A stretch of 64,000 bases of DNA from a virus (taxonomy: Duplodnaviria > Heunggongvirae > Uroviricota > Caudoviricetes): positions 28,280 to 92,279 of IMG/VR virus record IMGVR_UViG_3300042465_005697. One strand, written 5' to 3'. The translations under genes and the position numbers were made by a program. The notes beneath the pieces are model-generated. The model was not told where the DNA came from. It made no database searches and saw only the letters and a program-made list of their open reading frames with translations. Positions 526 to 55,640 of this stretch are shown piece by piece (within the stretch, counting starts at the first letter, position 1; each line of letters begins with the position of its first letter).

Positions 526-909
526 ATGAAAAAAGTAATTAGACTAACAGAAAGTGAATTGACTGAGTTGATACAAAGAATAATCGTTGAGACAAAAATG
601 GATTCAAAAGAGTCTGATTTTGCTGAGATGGAAGAAGGGTTCTTCGGTGCTAGTCGTAAAGAAAAAGAGGAATCTAAAACTAAGATGAAATCTAATATGG
701 AAAATCTTTTATCAGATAAAGATATGACTGAAGATGATATTTTAAATTCAATTGAAGATGTTCTTAATCAAGCAAAACAATATAACTATAAAGGAACAGT
801 TAAATTGGTTAAATCATCTAAAGGTAAACCGATGTTATACTTAACTCCTGAATTAACTAAGATGCAAAAATTGGCAACAGGTACTGGAAGTCAAACTGCT
901 GGTAAATAA
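526..909 (+). CDS. hypothetical protein with conserved N-terminal MKKVIRLTESELTELIQRIIVE motif
   Basis: 127-aa ORF followed by hairpin+T-run terminator; N-terminus belongs to the repeated family seen throughout the window. Confidence 0.55.
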   Translation: MKKVIRLTESELTELIQRIIVETKMDSKESDFAEMEEGFFGASRKEKEESKTKMKSNMENLLSDKDMTEDDILNSIEDVLNQAKQYNYKGTVKLVKSSKGKPMLYLTPELTKMQKLATGTGSQTAGK

Positions 910-930
910 TTTAAAGAATTACAATAATAA

Positions 931-953
931 AAAGGGACTAATGTCCCTTTTTT
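931..953 (+). terminator. intrinsic terminator (gggac-taat-gtccc + T6)
   Basis: GC stem-loop followed by TTTTTT directly after stop of 526..909. Confidence 0.6.
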
Positions 954-956
954 AGT

Positions 957-1292
957 TTAATCCAAATCATCAACCATTTTGTGTATTAACAAAATAGCAT
1001 TATAATTAGTTTCACTAAACTTCAAGTAATTGTAAGATCTAATTGTTTGTTGGATAAAAACAACACCCAATGAGATAAATACGATTGTTGGTATAACCCC
1101 TAAAAATGGGTTAAGTCCGTAGATCACACTAATGAATGTGAAGAACACTAAACTAATTGCCGAGAATTTAAATTTAGATCTCCAAGACTCAACAATCAAT
1201 TCCTGTTCTTGCAATTGTTTTTCTTTTTTTTCTTTTAATTCTATTGAGTTCATAATCGTCGTATATTTAATAAGTATATACAAATATAACAC
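957..1292 (-). CDS. small membrane protein (two predicted TM helices)
   Basis: 111-aa ORF with two long hydrophobic stretches; start uncertain. Confidence 0.4.
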   Translation of the reverse strand: MLYLYILIKYTTIMNSIELKEKKEKQLQEQELIVESWRSKFKFSAISLVFFTFISVIYGLNPFLGVIPTIVFISLGVVFIQQTIRSYNYLKFSETNYNAILLIHKMVDDLD

Positions 1293-1323
1293 ATTTATTT
1301 AAACTACACAATATTTATTTAAT

Positions 1324-1935
1324 ATGAAGATAATAATTACCGAAGAACAAAATCAAATGTTAAATTTGATTGTTGAGATTGAGAATGTTAAACCATCAAG
1401 ATCTGCGGTAAAAAACATATGTGATAGTGAGAAATTTTGTAATGCTCAAGGAGAAATAACTTTTGGTCAATTACGTGCGTTAGTTGAATCAACAACAAGG
1501 AAGAGATTATTCCAACACGTAGGTGAAGGAGGGTTCAAAGCAACCATTAGAATGTTGCCTTGGTTTATACCCCAATTAATTATTGCGGGTGCGATTGGTT
1601 CAGCGGCAAGGGCAATAAATAAAATTATTAGACCAACATTAGAGGAGACTACTAACTATAAGACTTGGTGGGGAAAGTCGGTTATGAAAGCCTTTGATTT
1701 AATTGAGGGTGAATTAGGTATTTCAGATCCACTATCTAAAATATTCTTTATCTCTGATGGTCTTATGACTATGATGGATAATAAATATAAGGTAAAATTT
1801 GCAAGATATATTGCAAACATCGCAAGTGATCAACCAGATGATAAAGTAGTGCCTGAATATTTTGTTGAGAACGAATTAAGAAAGTGGGTTAATGATAAAT
1901 TCCTTTTAGATCCACCGCTTCCACCAAAATCATAA
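1324..1935 (+). CDS. hypothetical protein (N-term MKIIITEEQNQMLNLIVEIE)
   Basis: 203-aa ORF; N-terminus paralogous to 12452..13072. Confidence 0.55.
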   Translation: MKIIITEEQNQMLNLIVEIENVKPSRSAVKNICDSEKFCNAQGEITFGQLRALVESTTRKRLFQHVGEGGFKATIRMLPWFIPQLIIAGAIGSAARAINKIIRPTLEETTNYKTWWGKSVMKAFDLIEGELGISDPLSKIFFISDGLMTMMDNKYKVKFARYIANIASDQPDDKVVPEYFVENELRKWVNDKFLLDPPLPPKS

Positions 1936-2564: not shown

Positions 2565-2834
2565 TGGTTTAACGTCTAAGGTGGAAACAACAATTGGATT
2601 TGTGTTTCTACCTAAGATCGGCCAACCTGTACTTACCATAAAATTTATCCCATCGGGGTGAGCCTCCACAGATTCCACAATATTGTCGGTATATATTGTA
2701 ATTGTGATCATATGTGATTTTTTACTTCTAATCCAAACAACACTATTAACAATAATATCACAATTAGGACCATAAAGAATATCTTTTTGTTCTTTCAATA
2801 CCTTATTCAATATAATTTCTAAATGTCTTTTCAT
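2520..2834 (-). CDS. hypothetical protein
   Basis: 104-aa ORF convergent with previous gene. Confidence 0.35.
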   Translation of the reverse strand: MKRHLEIILNKVLKEQKDILYGPNCDIIVNSVVWIRSKKSHMITITIYTDNIVESVEAHPDGINFMVSTGWPILGRNTNPIVVSTLDVKPLVPPPSHSLLQDSK

Positions 2835-8164: not shown

Positions 8165-8425
8165 TTATCGTTTAAAGTTCCTTAATACTTCATCCTTGGT
8201 GAGTGATCCAATGTTATTTTTTCTTCTATGATGTATTGCCTTTGAATTTCTTAATATGTTTTCCAAAACATCAACAACATCAGATGGGTTAATGCCCGAA
8301 TATTTTTCATTAATTAAATCGTTAATATCGGAATATAAATTACCTTTTTGATCGTCTTGTTCTTTAATGACTTTTTTAATTATTCTGCTTAAATCAGTTT
8401 CATTTAATTTTATTGCTCTTCTCAT
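8165..8425 (-). CDS. small protein with N-terminal MRRAIKLNETDLSRIIKKVIKE motif
   Basis: 86-aa ORF; member of N-terminal motif family. Confidence 0.5.
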   Translation of the reverse strand: MRRAIKLNETDLSRIIKKVIKEQDDQKGNLYSDINDLINEKYSGINPSDVVDVLENILRNSKAIHHRRKNNIGSLTKDEVLRNFKR

Positions 8426-8948: not shown

Positions 8949-9473
8949 TTAAACCCCTTTTATAAGGTTAATACATTGTTTTAAATATTCTTTAGATCTT
9001 GGAGATGGTGTATATTCGTCATCAGTTACTTGTAAGTTAAGTATTTTCTCAATGTCTTTAACTAATTCAGTTCCGTGTTCGTTCTCTTTATATAGTTCAA
9101 TAATTTTATTCATTGACTTATGACATTCACCACTAGTCTCATCGTAATAATGTTTATTACGGAACTTATTTAAATGGTTCATCATTTCATATGCCAAATG
9201 TTCTCCACCATCCTTAACATCTTTGAATAATCTGATGTTATTTAGGATACCTAAAGTATCTACCATACCATTAACGCCTTTGTTTCTTTTTGAGACACCA
9301 GGTGAGTATTTTGTATATCCTTCTGAATCACCAACAATCTCATCCAACGGAATAACGTTCTCGGGCATACATCTTGGTTTAACTTCTCCTTTATTAACTT
9401 TAGATTTTTCATCTTCGGTTAGGATTCTACGTAATGTAGTCTTAATCGCTCTTTCTGTTATAAATTTTTTCAT
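8949..9473 (-). CDS. hypothetical protein (N-term MKKFITERAIKTTLRRILTE)
   Basis: 174-aa ORF. Confidence 0.55.
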   Translation of the reverse strand: MKKFITERAIKTTLRRILTEDEKSKVNKGEVKPRCMPENVIPLDEIVGDSEGYTKYSPGVSKRNKGVNGMVDTLGILNNIRLFKDVKDGGEHLAYEMMNHLNKFRNKHYYDETSGECHKSMNKIIELYKENEHGTELVKDIEKILNLQVTDDEYTPSPRSKEYLKQCINLIKGV

Positions 9474-9543: not shown

Positions 9544-10185
9544 GTGAGTATGGTTAATATTGAACAAATCGTTAGAAAAGTTTTAAATGAAACTTATAAT
9601 CCCAAATCTATGGTGATTGTGGAGGATGTTAAAACATCTAGTAATTTGGATTACCACATTAAAAATAATTTAACAATTTCCGAAAATATCTTTAGACCAT
9701 ATTCGGATAGTTACTTTAATTTAGTTTGTGAGGTTAGAGAATTATATAATAACGGATCCATTGATTTACCTAAGAATGATTTATGGTTAATTGAAACGGA
9801 TCTTGGTAATGTCGTTAAATTAACGAATGGGGAATATGTTTCATTGGATTGTCCTTATTTGATTGAGGATAATGAATTGTTATCTGAAGCTGAATATCAA
9901 GGTAAGAAGGTGAAGGTTGGTTATCCAATGAGAGATTCTGGAGGAAAGAAGAAATATAAGGTTTATGTTAAAAATCCAAGTACTGGAAATATTAAAAAAA
10001 TCACATTTGGTGATGTACACGGGGGTTTAACTGCCAAGGTATCCAATCCTAAGGCAAGAAAAAGTTTTGCTGCTAGACATAAGTGTAAAGACAAAAAAGA
10101 TAGGACTAAGGCTGGTTATTGGGCGTGTAGAATAAATAAATATGGTCACCTATGGGGTAATCGCACTTATCCGGGGTATTGGTAA
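9544..10185 (+). CDS. hypothetical protein
   Basis: 213-aa ORF; basic C-terminus. Confidence 0.55.
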   Translation: MSMVNIEQIVRKVLNETYNPKSMVIVEDVKTSSNLDYHIKNNLTISENIFRPYSDSYFNLVCEVRELYNNGSIDLPKNDLWLIETDLGNVVKLTNGEYVSLDCPYLIEDNELLSEAEYQGKKVKVGYPMRDSGGKKKYKVYVKNPSTGNIKKITFGDVHGGLTAKVSNPKARKSFAARHKCKDKKDRTKAGYWACRINKYGHLWGNRTYPGYW

Positions 10186-11824: not shown

Positions 11825-12439
11825 ATGAACATCAGGGAAACAATAAAGAAAATAATCAATGAAGACAATAGGATGAGAGGTAATATTCGTCAGATAGTAA
11901 GGGATATTGTAATCGTATTTAAAAATGAAGATGAGGGAGAATTCCAATTACCTGAATATTTTGAGGATCGTGATGAAATGGTTTATAACTTTGTTGGGTT
12001 ACCAGTTCCATTATCCGTTGAAGTTGATTTAAATGTTGATGAATCAATTGATGGTTATGAGTTGGATGCTGATTATTATAGAGAAGAACATACTATCAAT
12101 CTTAGAATAACTTATAATCCAGAAGAAAAGTCCCAATCAATGTATGATATGATTGGTGAATTAAATGAACTAATTGCTCACGAATTAAAACACACAAGAC
12201 AACGAGTTACCGGTAATTATGATCTTGATGTTGAGGAACCTGAAGAACCCTTACAATATTACACACAACCCCACGAAATTGATGCACAATACTTTGGGTT
12301 TAAAAGACTTTCAAGATTAACAAGAAAACCATTTGAAGAAATTGTTAGAAATTGGTTTGATACACATCAAACACAACACGGATTAACGGATGATGAATCG
12401 GAGATTGTTATCGGTAAAATATTAAAACACAAAAATTAA
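11825..12439 (+). CDS. hypothetical protein
   Basis: 204-aa ORF. Confidence 0.5.
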   Translation: MNIRETIKKIINEDNRMRGNIRQIVRDIVIVFKNEDEGEFQLPEYFEDRDEMVYNFVGLPVPLSVEVDLNVDESIDGYELDADYYREEHTINLRITYNPEEKSQSMYDMIGELNELIAHELKHTRQRVTGNYDLDVEEPEEPLQYYTQPHEIDAQYFGFKRLSRLTRKPFEEIVRNWFDTHQTQHGLTDDESEIVIGKILKHKN

Positions 12440-12451: not shown

Positions 12452-13072
12452 TTAACCTCTAAATCTATTAACAATCTTTTTTATTAACTCCCTAACAATT
12501 GCACTTGATCCAATAATTGCACCATAACTCAAAATTCTTTTAATTATTTGATTTACGGTATTTTGATCATACCCTGTTTGTGCCATTTCATATAGTTGTG
12601 GTAATAATGGAATAAGAAATGTATATGCTAACATATTTGCCATTTTACCCATCGTAATATTTAAACTACTAACAAATGATAAGAATGTGTCCTTTAAATT
12701 AGATGTCGCACTTAACACCTCATCAAAAACATTAACCAAACCTTTTTCTTTAATTGTTTCAAGAATTTTTGATAATGCCTTTTTATTTGAAGTGTAATAA
12801 GTAACCATTGCTCCTGTAATCAATAGTGATATGTCCAAACTTGTTAGTTCAGGGTGTTTACCCTCAATATATTGTGATACTGGCATCATAAGACCACCAA
12901 GTGTTGAACCCCAACTCATTAAGAACTCAAAATCAAGTCCTGTTGTGTCCCGTGTTTCTTTTAAAACCTTTTCGGTAAATTTTTTCATTGACCTATAAGA
13001 TCTTACGATTGATTCCGAAACACCCTCATTGAGTAGTGATCTATTCTGATTTTCTGTGATTATTATTTTCAT
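12452..13072 (-). CDS. hypothetical protein (N-term MKIIITENQNRSLL, paralogous N-terminus to 1324..1935)
   Basis: 206-aa ORF. Confidence 0.5.
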   Translation of the reverse strand: MKIIITENQNRSLLNEGVSESIVRSYRSMKKFTEKVLKETRDTTGLDFEFLMSWGSTLGGLMMPVSQYIEGKHPELTSLDISLLITGAMVTYYTSNKKALSKILETIKEKGLVNVFDEVLSATSNLKDTFLSFVSSLNITMGKMANMLAYTFLIPLLPQLYEMAQTGYDQNTVNQIIKRILSYGAIIGSSAIVRELIKKIVNRFRG

Positions 13073-13788: not shown

Positions 13789-14499
13789 ATGGCACAATAT
13801 TTTTTCGGGATGACCCAAGCAGAAAAAAACGATATTTTAGAACAACACAAAACCATTTATGATGGTTATGTGACTGAATACGGACAAGGAAGTAATGAAA
13901 CACCGTTATATGTTCAAGACTTTGCAAACGATAAACAAGGAATTACCGTATCCAATAAGGGTGTTGTTAAACCATATACCAATATGGGAATTAACGAATC
14001 TGATCTACCATTAGATATGATTGGTGATGGTGAGGATGACTTAATTAACGGAACAGTTGATATTGATGGTGAAAACCGTTTTGAAGATGAGGATATTGAA
14101 TACATATCATTAGGTCTAAACGATGATGGTGATTACGATGATTATGCTGATGAAGATTATGACGATAAGTTTGATAAAGAATCTCAAGAAATTAAAAGAA
14201 TAAATAGAGACTTAGGTAAAGACGAAGACGAATTAGATGAAGGGTGGGATGATCATAAAATGAAACGACGTTATGATGATTATGACCCAGCAAACTTTAG
14301 AAAAATACCAAAAACTTTTCGACCAGGAATGGAGGATTATGAAGGAACAGAATTAATTAGTCGTGATGATGATGAAGAGTTTGATATGTTTGACGATATT
14401 GATTTTTCAGGTGAGGTTGATGAAGACATTTTACCGGAATTTACGGAGAAGTTGAACGAGTCTTTGGATATGTTTAAAAGATTCAAAAATTACAACTAA
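13789..14499 (+). CDS. hypothetical highly acidic protein (D/E/Y-rich)
   Basis: 236-aa ORF; shares DEDYDDKFDKESQEI(K/E)RI segment with 51611..53056. Confidence 0.5.
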   Translation: MAQYFFGMTQAEKNDILEQHKTIYDGYVTEYGQGSNETPLYVQDFANDKQGITVSNKGVVKPYTNMGINESDLPLDMIGDGEDDLINGTVDIDGENRFEDEDIEYISLGLNDDGDYDDYADEDYDDKFDKESQEIKRINRDLGKDEDELDEGWDDHKMKRRYDDYDPANFRKIPKTFRPGMEDYEGTELISRDDDEEFDMFDDIDFSGEVDEDILPEFTEKLNESLDMFKRFKNYN

Positions 14500-16784: not shown

Positions 16785-18689
16785 ATGAAAAAAAACATTA
16801 TTTTAGAATTAGACAGAATAAAATCTTTAATGAAGATTATTGTTGAACAGGGTAGTGCCGACATCAATATTGATAGAATGGCACAAGACCAACTTGTGGA
16901 TGCTCCGGATAGTTTTGGACCTATGGATCAATATAATACAATTAAAATTGGTGAAGGAACTAAATACCCAGTTATTTATCCTGATTATAATACTATAATT
17001 ATGGGGGATCCTGACCCCCATTTAAAACAAGCAGTAGGTAATATCAGTGCATCTAATTTTATTAAAGATGTTAAAATTGATGATAATGGTGAGGAATATA
17101 TTATAAAAAACGGTAAAAAATATTGTTTACCAACAAAAACATCAGGATTTTGGAAACTTCTTTCAAATGGTAAATTTGTTTACCAATTTAGTAATCCTAA
17201 AAATGGTCTTATCTTCTCAATGTTTATAACCCCTAAACCATCGGTTACGTTACCAATGTTAAATTCTGACGGTGTTCCTGTAGATGAAACAATGACTGGT
17301 GTGGAAGCGGCAATAAGATGTGCAGGTGGAGATAATGGTTGGGGTTTCCATTATAAAGATGGTAATCTTTTTTGGGGTAAAGATGGTAAATCATATGATC
17401 CTACTAACCCCGAACATTTTGACAATAGATCAACATTTGATGAATGGTGGGATAAATGGGGTTTAGTGGTTGAAGTTGTTATTGGTTTGGCAGCGGCATT
17501 TACAGGTGCAGGATTGGCGGCATTTCTTGTTGAGGCTGGTATTGTTGAAGGGGCATTTGCAACTGCGTATGTTGGAGGAAGTAGTGAAACCATTTTATCT
17601 GTTGTGTTACAAGCGGGAGTTGAGGCGGGTCTTATGGCACCTATAGCAAAATATCAATGGGATAGAGGTAAAGAAAGTGATGCAATATTATCAATAGCAT
17701 TTTGTTTCTTACCTTTTTTAACAGAATTAGGGTCAGTTCAAAAATATATTAAGGGTGGAATATCTCCGAACACTACCAAATCATTATCGGAAAAATTTCT
17801 ATCTAATGGTGGATCTTCAGGAATATACGCATCTAAAGAAGCTTACGAATCATATTTAGAGTCTTTAACAGGTACTGAATTGGGATTATGGAAAGCCACG
17901 GTAGAGCAACTATCAACAAAACAAGGGGCTGACCAATATAAAGAAACATTAAAAGGGTATTTAATAAAAAATCAAAGTAAAATAAATAATACAATATTAG
18001 ACCATAAAGTTTGGGTGGACCAAATGGATGATCTAACCGCAGGTCAATTTAGTAAAAAAGTTTTAAACCAAAACATAATAACAGGTAAAGGGGCTATTGC
18101 GCAACTATTAAGAATTGGTATTCCAATTGCTGGTGTTGCAATTGGGTTTACCCAAATATATAATAAACTTAAATCTATGGGGTATAATGATACCCAAATT
18201 GAGAAGATCTCAAATAAATTAGAAACTTCATTAAATAATAGTGAATATTTTAAAGGGTTAATTAAAATTGATTCTGAATTATATCAGAAATTAGTTGAGG
18301 AGTTAATACGAACTAAAATATTATCAGATAAAAAAATACCGGATAGCATATTACAAAATTCTATGAGTGATCCTGAACTTAATAATTTAGTTGAACAAAG
18401 TGCAATTAAATTAATAAAGGAACGTCCTGAATATTCTGAAGTTTTTGATATACCAATAGATGTTACACAAGAAGAAATATTAACACTTTTTAAAAAGAGA
18501 ATATTAAAACATCTTAAGGTTAATGGACATGAAAATATTAAATTTACGGATGAAGTTCCATTTAAAACTTACAATTTTACGTCCAATAAAACACAAAACG
18601 GGGTTGTTACGGTAAAAGTGCCGACATATTTTAAAACAGATTTGGATGTTTTAAAATATGATATGTCTGGTTTAGAAATTACGGAATAA
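16785..18689 (+). CDS. large hypothetical protein with central Gly/Ala-rich hydrophobic (TM-like) region
   Basis: 634 aa; N-term MKKNIILELDRIKSLMKIIVE motif; segment VVEVVIGLAAAFTGAGLAAFLVEAGIVEGAFATAYVGG. Confidence 0.55.
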   Translation: MKKNIILELDRIKSLMKIIVEQGSADINIDRMAQDQLVDAPDSFGPMDQYNTIKIGEGTKYPVIYPDYNTIIMGDPDPHLKQAVGNISASNFIKDVKIDDNGEEYIIKNGKKYCLPTKTSGFWKLLSNGKFVYQFSNPKNGLIFSMFITPKPSVTLPMLNSDGVPVDETMTGVEAAIRCAGGDNGWGFHYKDGNLFWGKDGKSYDPTNPEHFDNRSTFDEWWDKWGLVVEVVIGLAAAFTGAGLAAFLVEAGIVEGAFATAYVGGSSETILSVVLQAGVEAGLMAPIAKYQWDRGKESDAILSIAFCFLPFLTELGSVQKYIKGGISPNTTKSLSEKFLSNGGSSGIYASKEAYESYLESLTGTELGLWKATVEQLSTKQGADQYKETLKGYLIKNQSKINNTILDHKVWVDQMDDLTAGQFSKKVLNQNIITGKGAIAQLLRIGIPIAGVAIGFTQIYNKLKSMGYNDTQIEKISNKLETSLNNSEYFKGLIKIDSELYQKLVEELIRTKILSDKKIPDSILQNSMSDPELNNLVEQSAIKLIKERPEYSEVFDIPIDVTQEEILTLFKKRILKHLKVNGHENIKFTDEVPFKTYNFTSNKTQNGVVTVKVPTYFKTDLDVLKYDMSGLEITE

Positions 18690-18690
18690 T

Positions 18691-20133
18691 ATGATTTTAA
18701 CTGAAGAAATAAATAGAATAAAAAAAATGATGGGTCTGAACCTTTTAAATGAAGGTTGGGATGATATCTTTAAGAAACTTTTTGGAGTATCAGATGAAAC
18801 TGTTACTGTTATATCAAAAGAATTTGGGGATGATCCTGGAAAATATTCATCAAAATTGGCATCAATTGTTGGGGGTACCGGAAGTATTTCCGATGTTACA
18901 ACCTATTTGTCAAGACAAGGTACTGGAACTTCAGATGAGGCAATAGTTGCTTGGATTAAAACACAACCAGAAATTATAGATCAAATTGCAAGAAATTCTG
19001 ATGAAGTAATGAAAAAAGCAAGTAAGATTGTGTATGGTAAATTACAATTATCCGAATTTTTAACACCTAACGCCCTTGATGTTATTAATACAACATTATT
19101 AATTAAGTTGGAAGAGGATTCTGTAGATGTTATTATAAAATATATTGACAAATGTTTAGATGTTTTAACTAAACTACCTCAACGAGGAAATAATTCCGAT
19201 TTGGATACTTTAATTAAACAATTGGAAGACAAAAAAAGATTGTCGGAAAATTATAAAAGTTCTATGAGTTCTTCGCCTGTTGTTAAAACGACAGATGAAT
19301 TCACCCCATCACCAACCGCAAAATCTTATCTTGAAACATTCGCTTATAATAATTCCAATAGTTTTATTCAAATGGCAACAGGTAAACCGATGAGTGGTTG
19401 GAAAATTCATATTTATGGTGATAGTGTTGAAGATTCGGCAAAATTAATTACCAAATTAGATGATTATTTAAAATCAACCGAATCGTTTTATAAAATTGCA
19501 ACCGATAAATTTTACAAAAATTCTTCAGGGACAAAACAACAAGGTAAGGCATTAACAATTTACATACCTTACGATGTGGTTAAAAGTGGAAAACAAAAAG
19601 AATATTTTGATGGGATTAGTCAGAAATTAGGGAATTATAATAAAACTGGTGATATATCTGGTGATAAATCATATAATGGTGTCATACATTATAGATACGA
19701 ATATAAAGAACCATTTGATACATTACCTGAAGGTGGGGTAACAATTGGAGATGCGGGTAAATACTATGAAAGTAATGAAGGTGATTATATGTCGGGGACA
19801 GGTGATAAACAACCCGATTTATTTAATAGGTCTTCAACAACCGATAGTCCAATCGTTAAACAAACAACAGATTTTTTATCCGGAAAAAGAATATCAAATA
19901 GATCATTTAATGAATCGGACATAGATTGGGCAAATATAACAAATGCCAAAAGTGTGGACGATTATAATAAAATTATTGCAAACGCTATTCAAACGGGGGA
20001 TTATAGTAGAGTATCTAGAAGTGGATTTGAACGGTATGGGATTGATAATTTTAGAGAATATCTAATGAATAATATTTCAAAAGTTAATGAGGTTGATCCA
20101 TCAATAGGTAGATGGAGCGTTAATTTTAAATAA
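18691..20133 (+). CDS. hypothetical protein, paralog A of tandem pair
   Basis: 480 aa; first ~190 aa near-identical to 20191..21564. Confidence 0.55.
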   Translation: MILTEEINRIKKMMGLNLLNEGWDDIFKKLFGVSDETVTVISKEFGDDPGKYSSKLASIVGGTGSISDVTTYLSRQGTGTSDEAIVAWIKTQPEIIDQIARNSDEVMKKASKIVYGKLQLSEFLTPNALDVINTTLLIKLEEDSVDVIIKYIDKCLDVLTKLPQRGNNSDLDTLIKQLEDKKRLSENYKSSMSSSPVVKTTDEFTPSPTAKSYLETFAYNNSNSFIQMATGKPMSGWKIHIYGDSVEDSAKLITKLDDYLKSTESFYKIATDKFYKNSSGTKQQGKALTIYIPYDVVKSGKQKEYFDGISQKLGNYNKTGDISGDKSYNGVIHYRYEYKEPFDTLPEGGVTIGDAGKYYESNEGDYMSGTGDKQPDLFNRSSTTDSPIVKQTTDFLSGKRISNRSFNESDIDWANITNAKSVDDYNKIIANAIQTGDYSRVSRSGFERYGIDNFREYLMNNISKVNEVDPSIGRWSVNFK

Positions 20134-20190
20134 ACAAGATAATAACTTAACTTTTTTGTAGGTTAAGGTATTTATAATAAAAGATTTAAT

Positions 20191-21564
20191 ATGAGAACAA
20201 ATATTGGTGGAATTCTATTAACCGAAGTTAATAGAATAAGAGAAATGATGGGTGTAAACATTATAAATGAAACGATAGATCCTGAAGCTTTACTTAAGAA
20301 AGTTTTAGGGGTCTCAGACGAGGTAGCCACGGGAATTGCAAAAGAAGCTGGTGATGATCTTGTAAAATATTCATCAAAATTGGCATCAATTGTTGGGGGT
20401 ACCGGAAGTATCTCAGATATTACAACTTATTTGTCAAAACAAGGTCTTGGAACTTCGGATAATGAAATCGTTGCTTGGATTAAAACACAACCAGAAATTA
20501 TAGATCAAATTGCAAGAAATTCTGATGAAATAATGACAAAGGCAAGTAAGATTGTATATGGTAAATTAAAATTGGATGAATTTTTAACACCTAACGCCCT
20601 TGATGTTATTAATACAACATTATCTATTAAGTTAGATGAAGATTCTGTAGATGTTATTATAAAATATATTGACAAATGTTTAGATGTTTTAACTAAAACG
20701 CCTCAACGAGGAAATAATTCCAATTTGGATACTTTAATTAAACAATTGGAAGATAAAAAGATATTATCGGTGAATTATAAAAATTCTATGAATAATCCAA
20801 CTAAAGTTGTTGATGATATTGCTGGAGGATCATCTAGGTCATTAGATGATGAATTTATTAATGACCCAAAAATAAAAAATGTTACAGATAATCAGAAATC
20901 AAAAATAGAATCTGACATTTCTTCAATGAGTGAACAAGAAGCTAAGACAATTTTGGACGAAATTAAAAATAAAAATGGTAAATTTTCTTCAGGTACTTTA
21001 TCAGCTAATGGTTTAACAAAAGAACAGATTGAGAAATTTGGTGGTATGGTTGGTTCGATACTCCTCATGCCACTTAATCTTGTGACTAGAATTCTTAAAA
21101 CTTTAGGTTTTAATGTACAAGTAAGTCCCGTTAAAGCATATCTTTCATTAGCGTTACTTAGTTTAATCGGATATACCACTTACAAATGGTATAATGGTGA
21201 ATTTTCTCTTTCACAAGCACTCCCAAAAATAGATACGTCAGATGAAAATTGCGTACAAAATGTTGTTGGTTATGATACACTTACTAAGGATATGAAAAAT
21301 TTTGTCGCAATACAATTTGGTTGTAGAAAAACAAAAGATATTGATGCAAATTCTACTGAAAAAATAACTGGATTTGGTAATGTAACAACAAACCAAATTT
21401 CAGTTATCTACTCAAACGCAAATTGTAATAAAATATACGAAATAAGTGCTGGTGGTATGGGTGAATTAATTGGGGACACTTGTAGTGGGTCTACTTCGGG
21501 TGGAGGTGAGGAAGAAACAACAACTCCTGATGTAGGTGAAGAAGGGGCATTAGATGAATTATAA
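20191..21564 (+). CDS. hypothetical protein, paralog B of tandem pair (C-terminal TM segment)
   Basis: 457 aa; conserved N-terminal half, divergent C-terminal half. Confidence 0.55.
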   Translation: MRTNIGGILLTEVNRIREMMGVNIINETIDPEALLKKVLGVSDEVATGIAKEAGDDLVKYSSKLASIVGGTGSISDITTYLSKQGLGTSDNEIVAWIKTQPEIIDQIARNSDEIMTKASKIVYGKLKLDEFLTPNALDVINTTLSIKLDEDSVDVIIKYIDKCLDVLTKTPQRGNNSNLDTLIKQLEDKKILSVNYKNSMNNPTKVVDDIAGGSSRSLDDEFINDPKIKNVTDNQKSKIESDISSMSEQEAKTILDEIKNKNGKFSSGTLSANGLTKEQIEKFGGMVGSILLMPLNLVTRILKTLGFNVQVSPVKAYLSLALLSLIGYTTYKWYNGEFSLSQALPKIDTSDENCVQNVVGYDTLTKDMKNFVAIQFGCRKTKDIDANSTEKITGFGNVTTNQISVIYSNANCNKIYEISAGGMGELIGDTCSGSTSGGGEEETTTPDVGEEGALDEL

Positions 21565-21575
21565 AAAAAAATAAT

Positions 21576-23663
21576 ATGGAGCAAGATAGAAAAAAATTAT
21601 ATGAGTATTTACATACCCATATAAATACTGAGACAAATAAACATTATACTAGTAAAACATATTCCGTATTTGATTCGTCATATTATCAAAATGAATCAGG
21701 TGCTAATACATTATACTCCTCAGTATATAAATGGAAATTATATACTAAAGATAAAAAAAGTTTTTACAATAAATATCTTTGTGATTTAAATTGGGCGAAA
21801 TCGACAAGTAATTGTAAAACATCATCAACTGATGAACCAGTGGTAGATCCTGTTGTTATAACACCAGGTGGTAGATACAGTGATTGTACTGGAAAAACAT
21901 ACAGTAAAGGTTGTACAGACACTGAAGGAATTATTAGAAAAGTTCAAGGATGTCTTGGAACAACTGTTGATGGTAAATTTTGGTCAAAAACTGAGGATGC
22001 GTTAATGTCAAAAACAGGTAAAAACACTTTCACAAAGGAAGATGTTAGTAAAATCTGTTCGGGTGTATCAACCGATGGAGGTCCCCTAAAACCATTTGGT
22101 ATTGAGGAACAAAAAATATATTGGGAAGATCTTAAAAGTGAAGGTCAAATAACCACATTAGGTACCCCATTAACAAGTACAAAAAATAATGTTGTTGTTT
22201 ATGTTTATAAGAAAAACAGAACAACAGACAAAAAAGAAAAAATAACTTCAAATGAGGTTAATTGGAAATCGTCACCAGAAATTAAAGATGCGTTACTTAA
22301 GAGTTTTGAGGTATATGATTATATTGTATTACATCCGATAAATCCAAACACTCCAAATATGCCAGGTGAGGTTAGTATTATGACCGCAGGTTTAAATCAA
22401 GATGACGAGGTTGTAATTTCAACGGTTACTGCAGGTAGATGGGCACCAGCACAAAAAACTGTGTCATATGATTCTGAGGAATCTAATGATTTAATGGCAG
22501 AAACAATACAAAAGATTTTAAAAGGTAGGTTAATTGAACAGAATGTTACACTTACAAAACATTCATCACCAGACCCAACAATAAAAGGTACTGATATTGC
22601 ATCTACATCAACTAAAGATAGTGGTACGGGTACCTCAACTACAACAACTAAATCAACAATCACACCAAAAACAATTGATGTTAAAGTTGAGACAGAAAAA
22701 ATAATGACCCCAATCAAACAAAGGGCATTAAATAAAATTCAAGAGTGGGATGATTATAATGAGGGATTATCAGGACTGTCAGTAAGATCTGCGGGTAAAG
22801 GTAAAATAAATACTGAAATAGATAAAGCAAGATCAATAATTCAATCTGTTGAACCTAAAGATTTTTGTTCAAATGATGTTAAATCACAAATTAATAGTGC
22901 AAAGACGGACATCAACAAAAAGAAAAAGGAATATAGTTCAATCTTAACTAGTCAAGACAACAAATTTATGTCTGAATTGGAAGCATTGTTAAATGACCTT
23001 ATAGTTGGTTGTGAAACAATTCAAACTAAAGTTAAATCATCAGAAATGTCAGCAACAGTTGGTGGAACGACAGTTAGTGGAACAAAACCTGAATCTATGT
23101 CAACAACAGTTAGTGGAACAAAACCTGAATCTATGACAACATCGGAATTAAAGAAAGAAGAAGAGTCAATACCGGATTGTTCAAATTCAGTAACAATGTT
23201 AGTTGATTATGTGATTTCAGGTTTACAAGGTGTTATGTTAGATCAAACAAAAATTGATAAACAAAAAAGTGATTTATGTTATTGTCATAGAACAGGTGGA
23301 TTTAATAGTATGAATGCCAGAACAAAAGTTGGTGATATATTTAAAGACAAAATAAAGTCATATGATCTTAAAAGTGATTTTAAAACTAAAGTAGCGCCTG
23401 ATAAACAATTGTTTAGACCATTAATAAATAGAAATTTAGGTTGGAATGAAATACAAAGATTAATCCAAGGTAAACCAGTATTTAATGTAACTATTAACTC
23501 ACGATATATTGATAGAAACTTTGGTACAGAAAATTGTTATAGAGCCGTTAATGAGTCAATTAACTCTAAAGTTAAAAGACATATGACGGAAGCAATTAAG
23601 ACTAAAAGAAAAGATGTTATGGTTGAATCAATCTTAAAGGATATTAAAGGATTGAGAAAATAA
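21576..23663 (+). CDS. large hypothetical protein with internal 42-bp tandem repeat
   Basis: 695 aa; TVSGTKPESM(S/T)T duplicated (nt 23059..23142); T/S-rich linker. Confidence 0.55.
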   Translation: MEQDRKKLYEYLHTHINTETNKHYTSKTYSVFDSSYYQNESGANTLYSSVYKWKLYTKDKKSFYNKYLCDLNWAKSTSNCKTSSTDEPVVDPVVITPGGRYSDCTGKTYSKGCTDTEGIIRKVQGCLGTTVDGKFWSKTEDALMSKTGKNTFTKEDVSKICSGVSTDGGPLKPFGIEEQKIYWEDLKSEGQITTLGTPLTSTKNNVVVYVYKKNRTTDKKEKITSNEVNWKSSPEIKDALLKSFEVYDYIVLHPINPNTPNMPGEVSIMTAGLNQDDEVVISTVTAGRWAPAQKTVSYDSEESNDLMAETIQKILKGRLIEQNVTLTKHSSPDPTIKGTDIASTSTKDSGTGTSTTTTKSTITPKTIDVKVETEKIMTPIKQRALNKIQEWDDYNEGLSGLSVRSAGKGKINTEIDKARSIIQSVEPKDFCSNDVKSQINSAKTDINKKKKEYSSILTSQDNKFMSELEALLNDLIVGCETIQTKVKSSEMSATVGGTTVSGTKPESMSTTVSGTKPESMTTSELKKEEESIPDCSNSVTMLVDYVISGLQGVMLDQTKIDKQKSDLCYCHRTGGFNSMNARTKVGDIFKDKIKSYDLKSDFKTKVAPDKQLFRPLINRNLGWNEIQRLIQGKPVFNVTINSRYIDRNFGTENCYRAVNESINSKVKRHMTEAIKTKRKDVMVESILKDIKGLRK
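23059..23142 (+). repeat. 42-bp in-frame tandem duplication inside CDS 21576..23663
   Basis: acagttagtggaacaaaacctgaatctatg repeated twice. Confidence 0.6.
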
Positions 23664-24003: not shown

Positions 24004-24076
24004 GGTCCCATGATGTAATTGGATAACATATTTCTCTTCTAAAGAAATCTTTCAGGTTCGAACCCTGATGGGACTA
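24004..24076 (+). tRNA. tRNA-Arg(TCT)
   Basis: Hand-folded cloverleaf: acceptor ggtccca/tgggact, anticodon loop cttctaa, T-arm tcagg-ttcgaac-cctga. Confidence 0.75.
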
Positions 24077-25114: not shown

Positions 25115-25122
25115 GTTTATAA

Positions 25123-46769: not shown

Positions 46770-48796
46770 GTTCTTTTTGGTTTTTCTGTGGTAATTAACT
46801 TTGATGGTTCTGTAATTGTTACAACATCATCTTTTACTATAAGAGTGTAGTTAGTATTTTCCTTAACATCCCCAATTAAAATACCTTCAGATATTAGATC
46901 CTCAATTTTATCTTGGATTGCTCGTTTTAGAGGACGGGCACCAAACGTCTCATCAAACCCAACTTTTGAAATCATCTCAATCACCGAATAATCGGCAACA
47001 AAGTTATATTTCATTTTTGTTAATCTATTTAATAAGATATCAATCTCAAGTTTAACAATCTTATCAATATGGTCTTTCTTAAGTGAATTAAAGATAATAA
47101 CATCGTCAATTCTGTTAAGGAATTCAGGGGCAAAGAATTTACTTAATTCTGATTTAAGGATATCTCTTTTATGTTCCTCCTCAATATAGTCACTTTTCTT
47201 GAATCCCATTCCACCACCAAAATCTTGTAATTTTCTAACACCAATGTTTGAGGTCATAATAATTAAACAATTTTTGAAATTAATCTTTCTACCCAAACTA
47301 TCAGTAAGGTGACCATCATCCAACATTTGTAATAATGTTGAGAATATGTCTTTATTTGCCTTCTCAATTTCGTCAAACAAAATAACCGAATATGGTTTAT
47401 TTTTAACTTGTTCGGTAAGTTGTCCACCCTCTTCGTGTCCTACGTATCCTGGAGGTGATCCAATTAGACGAGAGATGGTATGTTTCTCTTGGTATTCGGA
47501 CATATCCACACGGATCATATTATCTTCATTACCAAAGATCTCTTTTGCTAGTTTCTTAGCCAAGAATGTTTTACCCACACCTGTTGATCCCAAGAATATG
47601 AATGAACCAATTGGTTTATTTGGATCCTTAATTCCGACTCTATTTCTTCTTATTGCTTTTGATATTTTGGCAACCGCTTCTTTTTGACCAATAACCAAAT
47701 CATTAAGGGTATCCTCAAGATTAACTAAAGATTTTGTTTCATCAATTGTAATTTTACTTACAGGTATTTTGGTCATATTGGATACTACCTCATATACAAG
47801 TTCTGGTGAAATTTCTTTCTTTTTAATTGTTAATTCATCATCAAACTTCTTTTTTTCTTCTGCAAGTTTTGTGATAATTTTTCGTTCTTTATCTCTCAAC
47901 TCTGCAGCCATCTCAAATTTTTGACTTTTAATAACGTCAATTTTTTCTTGTTTGATATCAGAGGCTTGTTGTTTTAATTTTTCAATTACTTCAGGTAATT
48001 TTATATCCACTTGAGATCTTGCACCAACCTCATCTAAAATATCAAATGCTTTATCGGGGAATTCACGATCCGTGATATAACGATCCGCAAGCTCAACACA
48101 AAGACCCAAAATCTCATCTGTGTATGAAACTTTATGGTGTGCTTCATATTTTGCCTTACTATTTTGTAGGATTATTAATGTTTCTTCTTTTGTTGATGGA
48201 TCAACAATAACCTTTTGGAAACGTCTTTCTAATGCCCCATCTTTTTCAAAGTTCTTACGATATTCATCTAATGTTGTTGCACCAACACATTGTATCTCTC
48301 CTCGGGCAAGTGCCGGTTTAAAGATGTTGGAAGCATCCAGTGATCCTGATGAACTACCCGCACCAACAATCGTATGGATCTCATCAATGAATACCACAAT
48401 ATTGGGGTTGTTCTGAAGTTCCTCAATAATCACTTTCATTCTTTCCTCAAATTGACCGCGATATTTTGTTCCAGCAACTATTGAATTCATATCTAAAGAT
48501 ACGATACGTTTATCCATTAAATTTTTAGGACAATCCCCTTCATAGATTTTCATTGCCAAACCTTCAACGATTGCAGTTTTACCACAACCAGGTTCCCCAA
48601 CTATAATTGGGTTATTTTTCTTTCTTCTTGATAGGATCTGAGCGATTCTCATTATTTCTGCTTCTCTACCAACCACAGGATCTAATTTACCTTCTTCTGC
48701 TAGTTTATTAAGGTCTCTACTGAAATTATCTAATACTGGTGTTCCTTTATCTGATGACTTTTTGTTTTTGTCTTCATTATCCATATTTTCTATCAT
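46745..48796 (-). CDS. ClpA/ClpC-type Hsp100 AAA+ ATPase (two nucleotide-binding domains, no Clp N-domain)
   Basis: D1 Walker A GEPGCGKT and D2 Walker A GSTGVGKT; LDxFxRDL...[10 protein letters not shown] start typical of ClpA/B D1; 683 aa. Confidence 0.8.
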
Positions 48797-49373: not shown

Positions 49374-49952
49374 ATGAACAATAATCTTTTTAAAATAGAT
49401 GATTCCGAAAAAATGAGAATTTTGGAAATGCATCAATCAGCAACAAGTAGACATTACTTGGGAGAACAAGTTGCACCGGCAACAACCGCAGCGGCACCAG
49501 GACCTAAAGATCCTTCGGCTTTTGTTAGAACTGTTAACGATCTTAGATATGGAGCGTCACCTGGGGATAAATTATGGTTCCAATCACCTAAATACCCGAT
49601 ATTATCAGGAACTACAGGATTATATGGTGGTATAGCTTTTACAACACAAGTGACCAAATCTCAAGATACGAAAGACCAATCAGGTAAAGTTATTACAAAT
49701 GGAGCATATGATTTCCGTTTAAATTCTGCACCATTAATTATTGATTTTTCATTAACTTGTGGTGGTGGTGCTAGACTTCGTCAAGTATTAGTTAACGACA
49801 AACAAACCACTGTTAATGTGCCATCAGCAAATAATAAACCATCAACGGGGGATGCTATAGTACCTTTAGTGAAAAATTTATTTGGAGTAAAAGGGTTTTC
49901 AGAAAATAACCCATTTATTACTGAGTTTAAACAACAATATTGTCAATCATAA
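49374..49952 (+). CDS. hypothetical protein (N-term MNNNLFKIDDSEKMRILEMH)
   Basis: Start chosen at MNNNLF inside ORF 49350..49952. Confidence 0.5.
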   Translation: MNNNLFKIDDSEKMRILEMHQSATSRHYLGEQVAPATTAAAPGPKDPSAFVRTVNDLRYGASPGDKLWFQSPKYPILSGTTGLYGGIAFTTQVTKSQDTKDQSGKVITNGAYDFRLNSAPLIIDFSLTCGGGARLRQVLVNDKQTTVNVPSANNKPSTGDAIVPLVKNLFGVKGFSENNPFITEFKQQYCQS

Positions 49953-53056: not shown

Positions 53057-53460
53057 ATAAATTGATTTATATCAATGGTCTAGGACCAAACTATAAAGGG
53101 GATAATATATATGAATTTATATTTTCAGACACTTTAGAAGTTTGGGGTGAAAATTGGGAATCAAAACCAGCAAATGGTTATCCCTTACCTCCTGACATTG
53201 AACATATCAAGAAAGTTGGAGTATTAAGAAACGGTGAAATAACATTGGAGTTAATACAAAACTCTGATGTTTTTTCTATTATGGACGCAACTGACGATGT
53301 AATTGCGTTAGGGTGGGAGAGTGAAGGTGAAAACTTAGATTTCTCTATAATAAAAAGACTTGTTTTTAAATTTGGTCAAACCGAAGAAGAAGTGAAAGAT
53401 AAATTATATGAACGAGATATCGTTCTTGAGTTCGAAAAAAAAGTAGTATATGAAAACTAA
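53053..53460 (+). CDS. hypothetical protein
   Basis: 135-aa ORF, ATGA overlap. Confidence 0.45.
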   Translation: MNKLIYINGLGPNYKGDNIYEFIFSDTLEVWGENWESKPANGYPLPPDIEHIKKVGVLRNGEITLELIQNSDVFSIMDATDDVIALGWESEGENLDFSIIKRLVFKFGQTEEEVKDKLYERDIVLEFEKKVVYEN

Positions 53461-54280
53461 TAACCATACATTAACCTTACTTGAAAATGGGATTCATTTT
53501 TCAACATTAACTAATATGTCAGAAAGACAAATTAAAGTTTTGGCGGAAAGGTTTAAGAAAGAAGAAACTAAAGAGGCGGTAAATAAAACTGTATACCAAC
53601 CTTTAAAAGATCCTAATGATAAAAAAGCAGTGCAAGATATGGTTATGAAAACCAATCCAAATGCGTCTGTTGAATTGGAAGAAAAATTTGAATCTAAATC
53701 ACAACAAGGTTTATTTTGGGCAAAATGTAATAACAGTAAAGGTAAAGAAAAGAAAAAATGGTGTGATATGGCAAGAGAATTCTCTGATAGCACAACAAAA
53801 AAAGATTACAAGAAAATGCCTGAAAAGAAAAATCCTGAAAAAACTGTAGAATACAAAAAGAAACTTCAGAAAGAAAGTAATGAACAATATCTGGAAGATA
53901 GAATAATGGAAATGATTGAAAAGAATATTAATCCAAGAATCACTAAAGGTGATTTAAAGAAAAATATTTCAGAAAGATCAGAAGATATGATGTTGAGAAA
54001 CCCGAAAAAAATGTCTATGTTTAGTGATGAATCAGGAATTGAAATGAAGAAAATGAAAAGACCAATCGGTAAAATTTCATCTATGGGTAGAATGTCTATG
54101 GAAGAAAACGGAACAAAAGAAAAAGAGGCACCAACAAAACCTGGTACTAAAACACCACCAAAGAGAAAAGGGAACCCATTTAAGAACCCTAATCCTGGCG
54201 TTAAAGAGGATCCAAGAGGTAATAGTAAAGAAGATGTTAAAATGACATTTATTAATCAAATTAAAAAAGCACTATATTAA
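53450..54280 (+). CDS. Lys/Glu-rich hypothetical protein
   Basis: 276-aa ORF. Confidence 0.5.
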   Translation: MKTNNHTLTLLENGIHFSTLTNMSERQIKVLAERFKKEETKEAVNKTVYQPLKDPNDKKAVQDMVMKTNPNASVELEEKFESKSQQGLFWAKCNNSKGKEKKKWCDMAREFSDSTTKKDYKKMPEKKNPEKTVEYKKKLQKESNEQYLEDRIMEMIEKNINPRITKGDLKKNISERSEDMMLRNPKKMSMFSDESGIEMKKMKRPIGKISSMGRMSMEENGTKEKEAPTKPGTKTPPKRKGNPFKNPNPGVKEDPRGNSKEDVKMTFINQIKKALY

Positions 54281-54281
54281 G

Positions 54282-55640
54282 ATGGGAAATAAAGATTTAG
54301 AAAGATTAATCAGAAAGGTAATAAAAGAAGCCCCTGTTGATTATGGAGATTATCCTGAGAGAATGGATCCAAAGAGTCAAAAAAAAGTTGAGGATCCAGA
54401 AGGAATATACGCAAAAAACAGAGCGTTTAAAGGTGGTGTTTCTGACGTAGAAAAAATTACAGGAACGAGATTTAAAGAAGTTGTTGATTATGTAAAAAGA
54501 TATTTTGGAACTGAGGAGAATATTACAAGTCCTTTGGTTAAAAGATCTATACAAATGGAACAAATGAGATCAGTACAACAAGCAATGATGATTGAAAATT
54601 CACATAAGAGTGAATTAAAAGATTTGGCGGTTGAAATTGCCGCAAAAGAAGAAGGGTGGATGCCTTATTCGTCAACTCTTGAGGAGGCGATAGAAGGGGG
54701 ATCAATTAATAAGTCCCCAATTCAAGGTGCTGGTACAAGATATGGGTTTGAGTTTATTAATGTTGAAGCATTTTTAAATGAACAAAGAATTAATCCAAAC
54801 CAATTCAAAATGGATAAAGCAAAACTTCCTAAATTGGAGTTACCACCAAACTTTTCATTTGATATTGACGAATTAACACCAGAAGAACAAAGACAATTAG
54901 AAATTGAGAAACGTCACGTAATTAACGCAATTATTCAAGGTAAAGGTAAAAGAGGTCAATTTAGTTATCAAGGATTTAAAGATAGGTTGGATGAAATAGA
55001 CCCAAGGTTATATTCATTATATAATAAAATTATGTCGGCAAATGATCTTATGTATTTTACTGAAGAAGATCTAATTGAGGCGATGGGTGGTAATGCCGCA
55101 GGATCGTCAAAAATTGAGAATAGTGATGGTGATGAAGATGAAGATGAGGAAGGTGAGGAAGAAGGAATGGATGCCGTTGTTGCTAATGGTATTATATTTC
55201 CAATCTTACTACACGAATTAGTTAAAGGTTTTGCATCCGTTGCATCAAGAGAACAATGGAGAGATCTTGATCCTGATATGGCACATGATGTTATGGGACA
55301 AACAGACATAATGCCGAATGAACCAATGCAATTTAGAGTTGGTGGTGAATTAGTAAGAAAATTAAAAACATTACTACCTGACGAATTAACAATTAATGTT
55401 GAAAATAGAGAGTTATTACCATTCTTTGAAAGAATTTTATATGGTATTCCAGCTGAACAATTTTTAAAAGATATTATGGCTAATGTTATTTCTGAAGTAC
55501 CTGCGGATAATGAAAAGGCAAAACGTAAATTCAGAGAAATTTTGGATAAAGCAAAAAGAGATTATCAAAGATATAAAGGAAATGATCAAGACGAAGATGA
55601 GGACGAAGATGATGATCTTTTGGCTCAGTTAGGATTATAA
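54282..55640 (+). CDS. hypothetical protein immediately upstream of terminase (N-term MGNKDLERLIRKVIKE; acidic C-term)
   Basis: 452-aa ORF; position compatible with small terminase subunit or internal head protein but no motif support. Confidence 0.5.
   Translation: MGNKDLERLIRKVIKEAPVDYGDYPERMDPKSQKKVEDPEGIYAKNRAFKGGVSDVEKITGTRFKEVVDYVKRYFGTEENITSPLVKRSIQMEQMRSVQQAMMIENSHKSELKDLAVEIAAKEEGWMPYSSTLEEAIEGGSINKSPIQGAGTRYGFEFINVEAFLNEQRINPNQFKMDKAKLPKLELPPNFSFDIDELTPEEQRQLEIEKRHVINAIIQGKGKRGQFSYQGFKDRLDEIDPRLYSLYNKIMSANDLMYFTEEDLIEAMGGNAAGSSKIENSDGDEDEDEEGEEEGMDAVVANGIIFPILLHELVKGFASVASREQWRDLDPDMAHDVMGQTDIMPNEPMQFRVGGELVRKLKTLLPDELTINVENRELLPFFERILYGIPAEQFLKDIMANVISEVPADNEKAKRKFREILDKAKRDYQRYKGNDQDEDEDEDDDLLAQLGL

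Follow-up and report, generated by a model that had tools for sequence, protein, structure and literature searches.

Why do so many proteins of one phage begin with nearly the same few residues? The question is raised by a 64,000-nucleotide (nt) stretch of viral DNA (IMG/VR record IMGVR_UViG_3300042465_005697, positions 28,280 to 92,279; hereafter the window, in whose coordinates positions are given unless a contig is named), a piece of a large T4-like phage with a GC content of ~31%. A preliminary description listed 14 proteins with a common N-terminal motif ending in Glu and proposed either a capsid-targeting sequence (CTS), as removed by the gp21 prohead protease in T4, or a secretion or assembly tag. 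Here, we report that these N-terminal tags belong to at least four families, all recurring in related viral contigs, and that, with a probability of about 0.6 on the sequence comparisons below, they are a much-expanded, multi-family system of capsid-targeting propeptides like the T4 CTS, carried by an uncultured clade of large T4-like phages.

Tag families in the window

All 14 listed N-termini exist, at or beside the positions under which they were first given: the 49374 protein starts at an ATG at 49374, inside an open reading frame (ORF) listed from a TTG at 49350, and the ORF listed from 9544 more likely starts at an ATG at 9550. The single pattern to which they had been assigned did not hold. 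A hidden Markov model (HMM) built from the four full tags of family A and run on the six-frame translation of the window recovered those four strongly (42 to 47 bits) and missed the other ten, with a weak match (11 bits) at 54282, so the N-termini were split into families, of which at least four were resolved by comparison with relatives in IMG/VR loci. The search of relatives proposed earlier thus showed recurrence, for four families and not for one.

Tag A is MKKIIRLTESDLTRIVKRVIKE (22 aa; consensus in relatives MKK(I/V)(I/V)RLTESDL(T/A)RIVKRVI(K/N)E), and tag A' is the tail half of A only (e.g., MKNLIRRILKE; 89 such N-termini in related loci). Tag B is MNLQEQISRIQSMMGVINE, with the pattern MNLQEQISRIQSMMG(V/I)(I/L)xE; tag C is MKKFLITEEEKSRILGMHKSAIAREFLGE; and tag D is the 7-aa MKIIITE, extended as MKIIITE(E/D/N/S)Q. 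The window holds ~14 firm and ~6 weak tags, among them three missing from the preliminary description (at 11825, at 2834 on the minus strand, and one cut by the window's left edge at bases 2 to 37). A hyphen within a peptide marks the tag boundary or the known or presumed cut site, here and below.

526-591, plus strand: tag A, 22 aa, MKKVIRLTESELTELIQRIIVE, on a 127-aa protein (526-909); 42.5 bits
8360-8425, minus strand: tag A, MRRAIKLNETDLSRIIKKVIKE, on an 86-aa protein (8165-8425); 47.5 bits
29776-29841, plus strand: tag A, MKKIIKLTESDLSRIVKRVIKE, on a 112-aa acidic protein (29776-30114); HMM match
46453-46518, plus strand: tag A, MKKIIKLNETDLTRIISKTINE, on a 93-aa protein (46453-46734); HMM match
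54282-54329, plus strand: short tag A', MGNKDLERLIRKVIKE, then APVDY (boundary MGNKDLERLIRKVIKE-APVDY), on a conserved 452-aa head-module protein (54282-55640) directly upstream of the large terminase gene (TerL)
9550-9591, plus strand: short tag A', MVNIEQIVRKVLNE, on a ~211-aa protein ending at 10185
11825-11863, plus strand: short tag A', MNIRETIKKIINE, on a 204-aa protein (11825-12439); fails the tail-half motif and is assigned by sequence inspection
2790-2834, minus strand: short tag A', MKRHLEIILNKVLKE, on a 104-aa protein (2520-2834) whose orthologue in locus L049 has MKRRLQIILNKVLKE
9414-9473, minus strand: weak A'-like N-terminus, MKKFITERAIKTTLRRILTE, on a 174-aa protein (8949-9473); relatives give no support, doubtful member
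18691-18753, plus strand: tag B, MILTEEINRIKKMMGLNLLNE, on a 480-aa protein (18691-20133)
20191-20271, plus strand: tag B with an 8-aa extension, MRTNIGGILLTEVNRIREMMGVNIINE, on a 457-aa protein (20191-21564) with a hydrophobic segment; paralogue of 18691
16785-16847, plus strand: weak B-like N-terminus, MKKNIILELDRIKSLMKIIVE, on a 634-aa protein (16785-18689) with hydrophobic segments; under the class-B HMM threshold
38752-38838, minus strand: tag C, MARFILDIDDSEKLRILEMHSSVKKTITE, on a 404-aa protein (37624-38838)
49374-49466, plus strand: tag C, MNNNLFKIDDSEKMRILEMHQSATSRHYLGE, on a 192-aa protein (49374-49952)
38900-38971, plus strand: C/D-like tag, MKKKIVITEEEVKSILNKHKNLKE, on a 254-aa protein (38900-39664) with a weak SLT transglycosylase match
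13789-13878, plus strand: weak C-like N-terminus, MAQYFFGMTQAEKNDILEQHKTIYDGYVTE, on a 236-aa protein; no tag-only matches, doubtful member
1324-1344, plus strand: tag D, MKIIITE(EQ), on a 203-aa protein (1324-1935) with a hydrophobic segment
13052-13072, minus strand: tag D, MKIIITE(NQ), on a 206-aa protein (12452-13072)
2-37, plus strand: tag D truncated by the window's left edge, ..ILTESQYGRLVE, on an ORF ending at 481

The cargo family of the ORF ending at 481 bears tag A or tag D in relatives (it clusters with L030, L033 and L049). Four large ORFs (634, 480, 457 and 695 aa) form a tandem block at 16785-23663 (plus strand), the first three with B-type tags, the first and third with hydrophobic segments and the second and third being paralogues; the block could be a set of envelope-spanning ejection proteins.

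Conservation and distribution of the tags

IMG/VR was scanned with an alignment of the four class-A window proteins, and 79 loci were kept. Tag A gave more than 597 pattern matches and at least 351 confirmed relatives, most of which align only to query residues 1-24 to 1-30. Nearly all of the ~250 copies in the 79 loci stand at the Met of an ORF with unrelated sequence directly after, at a density of up to 11 copies per 20 kb. The first 28 aa of the class-A window proteins match 207 to 243 ORFs in related loci and the remainder of each protein 1 to 18 (N-terminus/rest: 526, 228/1; 8165 on the minus strand, 207/1; 29776, 243/18; 46453, 211/2), and the same holds in smaller numbers elsewhere (1324, 18/2; 12452 on the minus strand, 13/0; 18691, 15/0; 20191, 4/0). 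When 212 tag-A instances were chosen on residues 7-16 only, without using positions 1 or 20-22, Met was found at position 1 in 186. Only 5 of 271 HMM matches were internal, and the tail-half motif is 79-fold enriched at N-termini relative to internal positions.

At the DNA level, residues L7, E9 and E22 are invariant in 180 distinct copies of tag A, and the codons of L7, E9, E22, Ser10, Arg14, Arg18 and Val19 vary synonymously, with Leu, Ser and Arg changing within their six-fold codon sets (TTA/CTT, TCA/AGT and AGA/CGT). By codon position, mean entropy within the tag is 0.57 (first), 0.39 (second) and 0.99 bits (third), and directly past codon 22 it is ~1.75 to 1.8 bits for each. The same behavior was seen in classes B, C and D. 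Since synonymous sites are free and amino acids fixed, selection acts on the peptide, and its boundary is a single residue.

Tag A was confirmed in 2 of 185,579 bacterial and archaeal genomes (12 raw pattern matches), both metagenome-assembled genomes (MAGs), and was not found in 50,697 cultured-phage records. Its rarity in bacterial genomes and abundance in viral contigs disposes of the concern, raised at the outset, that it might be a generic start of the host proteome. In a collection of 5.8 billion proteins, searched with the full alignment and not the leader alone, tag A marks 4,689 protein clusters; among the 120 of these that were listed, none has a Pfam domain, and where a name is given, it is nearly always "hypothetical protein." In neither a set of 150 tagged proteins nor those of the window is the tag covered by a Pfam family, PHROGs gave no match for 54282 (the sole tagged protein scanned there), and a full-text literature search for the tag motif strings found nothing relevant.

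Cargo proteins

At a BLAST threshold of E < 1e-5, 356 distinct tagged proteins (49 to 637 aa; class medians, 114 to 277 aa) formed 217 cargo clusters, of which 160 were singletons; some clusters have 11 to 16 members, and tandem arrays of tagged genes exist. The statement that the mature parts are unrelated needs one amendment: the 18691 and 20191 proteins are homologous over ~170 aa past the tag. Tag and cargo have also been exchanged as modules, as is required by seven clusters in which homologous cargos bear different tags (A/D, B/D and B/C). One structural-region family (...RYMFFSNLEQM) has a long A tag in some phages and a short one in others, and the linker from its Glu to the conserved part varies in length. 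Some database proteins (P0041, P0089, P0098 and P0027) are fusions with a Met-less internal tag A between two cargo modules; such double-tagged proteins might be substrates of a polyprotein kind or the result of recent gene fusion.

Pfam matches were obtained for ~8 proteins in a representative set of 150 tagged ones, to PG_binding_1 (three), sigma-70 regions (two), Tae4 amidase, DUF6576 and a zeta-toxin/AAA-like kinase, which hints at cargos of many unrelated folds. A Pfam scan of the window's own tagged proteins gave essentially no matches (the SLT match at 38900, E = 5e-4, is below the Pfam cutoff), and hydrophobic segments occur in the large tagged proteins at 16785, 20191, 1324 and 12452 (minus strand). 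Among 147 untagged ORFs of the same loci, taken as a control, 56 families were matched, many of them enzymes; replication and metabolic enzymes are common among these untagged neighbors and absent from the tagged set. The untagged neighbors also include gp25 and other T4 baseplate proteins. Such a cargo profile suits ejected proteins and would equally fit early host-takeover proteins.

Prohead protease, cleavage motif and head proteins

The gp21-like protease noted in the preliminary description at 61130 is indeed a relative of gp21. Three head-module features bear on the tags:

61130-61858, plus strand: gp21-family prohead serine protease (Peptidase_S77, PF03420, 7e-22; 35% identity to T4 gp21)
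62222-63631, plus strand: acidic scaffold-like protein in the gp22 position, N-terminus ...NLENVIAE-NAQGIL
59654-60367, plus strand: conserved 237-aa protein in the gp67/68 (prohead core) position, N-terminus MKFGILKSKIENVLIE-SYK

The protease, presumably the enzyme that removes the tags, keeps the His of LNHP and the Ser of SSRG, putative catalytic residues to judge by these motifs; both are replaced by Ala in the 5JBL chain, most likely as inactivating mutations. The L/I-x-E motif is the T4 gp21 cut motif for the CTS of IPI-III and Alt and for the gp23 and gp24 propeptides (PMC9026906, PMC5694885). Among the 212 tag-A instances, [LIVM]-x-E stands at positions 20-22 in 201 (95%), the cargo parts giving a background of 1.9% per position; Glu occupies position 22 in 203, P3 is I, V, L or M in 207, and position 21 (P2) is the most variable of the tag. 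The other tags likewise end in h-x-E (h, hydrophobic) at the conservation boundary (B, ..MMGVINE; C, ..YLxE; D, IITE). At the level of sequence, the gp21-type cut-site check proposed earlier thus agrees with a predicted cut at this boundary.

Contig L081 runs on past the window and brings in more tagged genes along with the genes for the scaffold-like protein and the major capsid protein (MCP). Its MCP (L081 7716-9584) is a gp23 homologue (1e-23 to PDB 6uzc), and its propeptide aligns with that of T4 (INKWDKLGFLEG with LNKWKPLLEG, VAQLYENQ with IAKIFENQ, and ASFLINE-ATSEG with GSFLTE-AEIGG), so the known T4 cut site is kept, as L-I-N-E. MCP residues 15-23 (LKHLKVIKE) resemble the last five residues of tag A only and do not fit the longer tail motif; they were not counted. 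In three head-module proteins (scaffold position, core position and the 54282 family), an N-terminal stretch ending in h-x-E is conserved clade-wide, with Ala at P1' in two of the families. The h-x-E is kept in nearly all listed orthologue variants of the scaffold-position N-terminus; in the 54282 family, invariant columns are near continuous from E16-A17-P18, before which M1 alone is invariant. When loci were retrieved on similarity to the protease and nothing else (0.94 Mb, structural genes for the most part), 21 genes with tag A and 4 with tag C were found in them, and at least one contig is common to the tag and protease searches among the matches listed.

Promoter-like box

A box, TATTTAT(A/T), which we infer from sequence to be a late-type promoter, lies at two preferred distances before the ATG, 11 to 13 and 21 to 24 nt (in the window, e.g., at 486, 8446 on the minus strand, 29754, 55696, 59633 and 61107). 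At 11 to 13 nt, it implies leaderless or near-leaderless mRNAs. Across the clade, it was retained before the gene in the core position in 45 of 45 cases, the protease gene in 42 of 43, the scaffold gene in 28 of 34, TerL in 20 of 30 and gene 51611 in 18 of 20. Among tagged genes, 69% of class A and 71% of class C have the box. Before ClpB it was found in 0 of 6 orthologous loci, before GMP reductase in 0 of 1 and before M20 peptidase in 1 of 6.

Predicted structure

Tag A is amphipathic (muH 0.63, p = 0.009 versus shuffles), with a net charge of +4. The AlphaFold check suggested for the leader gave a helix, at low confidence: AlphaFold2 placed it at residues 9-22 of the 29776 protein (tag pLDDT < 50; mean pLDDT 55.6) and 3-16 of the 54282 protein (mean pLDDT 51.4).

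Interpretation and alternatives

If the tags are capsid-targeting propeptides, a tagged protein would be made together with the head proteins, and its tag (7 to 31 residues, mostly helical) would dock it to the scaffolding core of the assembling prohead; the gp21-type protease would then cut after the Glu of the terminal (I/L/V)-x-E, freeing the cargo within the shell, and the cargo would enter the host along with the DNA. Every computational test fits this proposal, which goes back to the preliminary description, and it remains the best-supported interpretation: the N-terminal position, modularity, protein-level selection and boundary motif of the tags were observed directly, as were the co-occurring gp21-type protease, the MCP cut site and the shared promoter box, and docking to the core, cleavage, packaging and injection would account for them. 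Several findings weigh against it. Tag A has about twice the length of a T4 CTS and is conserved far beyond what such a sequence requires, which could mean that it has another specific partner. Tagged genes are very numerous, both in the window and, by density, in relatives, which raises a question of capsid capacity. The h-x-E motif carries little information in a proteome rich in I, L, K and E. The box also precedes 40% of all long ORFs (background, 2.3%) and is not specific to head genes, so its support for co-expression of tagged and head genes is weak. Both AlphaFold models are poor overall, with low-confidence tag helices; no cultured relative was found in INPHARED (the 50,697 cultured-phage records); and one tag-A-like protein, in L161, has bacterial housekeeping genes for neighbors.

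L161 is a reindeer-derived Bacteroidales MAG (GC content, 46%). Its 169-aa protein (1032-1541, plus strand) starts MKKVIRLTESDIHRIVKNSVKKVLTE, and the divergent neighbor (111-983, minus strand), which has a PRTase-like look, starts MNTLDNIIKESIDNIINE. Both are found at an end of the contig, with tandem repeats as well as the housekeeping genes close by.

The strongest rival, although we think it unlikely, is that the tags are docking helices for some other partner, be it a host target such as RNA polymerase, the ClpB/ClpA-like AAA+ protein encoded at 46745-48796, a membrane, or some other assembly specific to the phage, with the Glu serving as a binding surface and no cut being made. Conservation of nearly all 22 tag-A positions, beyond the need of a T4-type CTS, speaks for such a partner, as do a phage-encoded two-domain Clp-type ATPase, the sigma factors among the cargos, the small, diverse tagged genes arrayed like phage host-takeover genes, and the tag-like protein in a bacterial MAG context. 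It leaves unexplained, however, why four unrelated tags all end in I/L/V-x-E at the conservation boundary, why conserved head-module proteins bear the same tail motif, and why the promoter box is common to head genes and missing at ClpB. Common descent alone would have a few families duplicate and their C-terminal parts diverge past recognition, the N-terminus being kept for an internal structural reason. We regard this as improbable: it accords with the tandem arrays, with cargo clusters of 11 to 16 members and with the clear paralogues 18691 and 20191, but 160 singleton clusters spanning 49 to 637 aa and differing in domain content, conservation that stops abruptly at one residue without gradual decay, homologous cargos with different tags, and fusions with an internal second tag between two cargo modules are hard to reconcile with it.

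Two further explanations are much weaker candidates. The conserved element could lie in the nucleic acid, as a 5' coding sequence for translation initiation on short-leader or leaderless mRNAs or as a recombination anchor, the peptide being a by-product; the very short leaders implied where the box lies just 11 to 13 nt before the ATG, the A/T-rich tags and the help that a conserved 5' segment could give to cassette shuffling are in keeping with it. The TTA/CTT, AGA/CGT and TCA/AGT switches nonetheless alter codon positions 1 and 2 and leave the amino acids as they were, and mean third-position entropy is about twice that of positions 1 and 2, so that this very improbable reading is largely refuted for classes A to C. 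Least credible of all is an export or secretion signal (Sec, Tat, lipoprotein, double-glycine leader or type IX secretion system [T9SS]). The tags are indeed N-terminal and amphipathic, the host is probably a T9SS-bearing member of the Bacteroidota, and, in its L-x-x-x-x-L-x-x-I spacing, tag A is reminiscent of double-glycine leaders. Yet the T9SS signal is C-terminal, tag A has no Gly-Gly, and bacterial genomes are essentially free of the tag. Uncharged runs in tag A do not exceed 2 residues (5 to 6 in tags B and C); lacking a hydrophobic core, tag A cannot be a Sec-type signal, contrary to the secretory role once considered for it, and the genuine Sec-type N-termini of the window differ clearly (e.g., MKNLILTLLMVLISSTSFTQ at 2942).

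Beyond the capsid-targeting reading itself, we give about even odds to a wider picture, in which abundant lake-associated T4-like jumbo phages would use at least four interchangeable, protease-removable tags to load dozens of fast-evolving proteins per genome for co-injection. It would be by far the largest capsid-cargo system known, with cell-wall hydrolases, sigma factors, toxin-like kinases and membrane-inserting proteins among its cargos. If so, the tags would be a sequence handle for finding thousands of candidate injected effectors and anti-defense proteins in metagenomes. Provided that the tags are capsid-address labels, a search with a 20-residue motif would list the injected arsenal of an abundant phage clade, thousands of unannotated proteins likely to be rich in functions that are difficult to discover by other means, such as anti-defense and host takeover. 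The reach of the T4 CTS principle would then include a distant T4-like lineage without cultured members, in which it would have diversified into parallel families with frequent shuffling of tags and cargos, and the longer, apparently very specific packaging tags might be used for protein delivery by engineered phage capsids. Even with a partner outside the prohead, a near-invariant 22-residue peptide on more than 200 unrelated cargo families would be an unusually clear, unannotated protein-sorting signal.

Genome context and relatives

Other genes referred to above are as follows:

55717-57480, plus strand: T4-type large terminase (TerL)
57794-59632, plus strand: T4-type portal (gp20; Portal_T4, 3e-74)
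46745-48796, minus strand: two-domain ClpB/ClpA-like AAA+ protein (AAA_2, 1.4e-67; AAA_lid_9; ClpB_D2-small)

No DNA match to the window was found among cultured phages, and the portal is only 38 to 39% identical to those of Microcystis phage Mel-JY01 and Flavobacterium phage vB_FspM_immuto, the closest in the cultured-phage collection. Identical or near-identical contigs are present in IMG/VR. Proteins with T9SS C-terminal sorting domains make a Bacteroidota host probable.

ARAGORN predicted 25 tRNA genes at 24004-36988. Two Rfam tRNA matches of ~105 nt (28789-28893 and 36745-36852) may carry introns, and a tRNA-Ile(tat) called by ARAGORN at 16942-17028, within ORF 16785-18689, is probably false. 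A full-length GOLLD RNA lies near the tRNA region at 41960-42367 (plus strand; Rfam RF02032, 321.6 bits versus a gathering threshold of 150). On the minus strand, a tmRNA match at 43431-43824 (49.7 bits, barely over gathering) abuts or overlaps a group I intron at 43234-43457 (94.7 bits), downstream of which is a zinc-finger/HNH-like ORF (42560-43108) on the same strand; the region 42560-43824 may comprise a phage tmRNA gene together with an intron that has a homing endonuclease. Further HNH/zinc-finger endonuclease-like ORFs, likely homing endonucleases, are scattered among structural and tRNA genes (L081 9622-10359 and 14342-14857; window 24138-24746 and 32898-33830).

Comparison with known systems

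The closest known system is that of T4, in which IPI-III and Alt carry CTS propeptides of 10 to 19 aa that are cut by gp21 and behind which the IP cargos are hypervariable (PMC9026906, PMC3012670, PMC5694885). As read from the T4 record, the precursors begin MKTYQEFIAE-A (IPII and IPIII), MKTFKEF...TITE-A (IPI) and MELITELFDE (Alt). Here, too, a short N-terminal peptide ending in L/I-x-E stands on unrelated, fast-evolving small proteins, and the cargos behind the conserved tag are hypervariable as in T4 (PMC3012670, PMC9026906); the same genome has a gp21-family protease, T4-type portal, TerL and an MCP whose propeptide site is conserved. In contrast to T4, there are at least four tag families and not one or two; tags A to C are 19 to 31 aa long compared with 10 to 19 aa; tag A is almost invariant over hundreds of genes; and ~14 to 20 tagged genes per 64 kb, with 4,689 clusters in public data, stand against a handful in T4. 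The tags resemble the N-termini of T4 IP and Alt in nothing but the initial M-K and the terminal x-E, and the tag HMMs found no match above threshold in T4 locus L160 (T4 100-135 kb), outside which the ipI-III region lies.

The phiKZ-like giant phages (phiKZ, 201phi2-1 and SPN3US) also have a large head with many internal or ejection proteins and a T4-related protease that cuts after Glu. Their propeptides are mostly longer than 100 aa with the motif A/S/G-x-E, compared with 7 to 31 aa and I/L/V-x-E here; identical N-termini of the diverged SPN3US paralogues gp53 and gp54 have been noted as CTS-like, and no widely shared short tag family has been described in these phages (PMC5694885). For double-glycine leaders, the comparison failed: tag A has K/R-R at the corresponding positions and continues to ..VIKE, and its cargos are proteins of 49 to 637 aa (a C39 peptidase was not searched for). 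Encapsulin cargo-loading peptides and the MIX and FIX markers of polymorphic type VI secretion system (T6SS) effectors are likewise short address modules on many unrelated cargos, encapsulin tags being usually C-terminal and not removed. The machines and sequences are unrelated to those described here, and the likeness is one of logic: in each case, the tag can serve to find the cargos.

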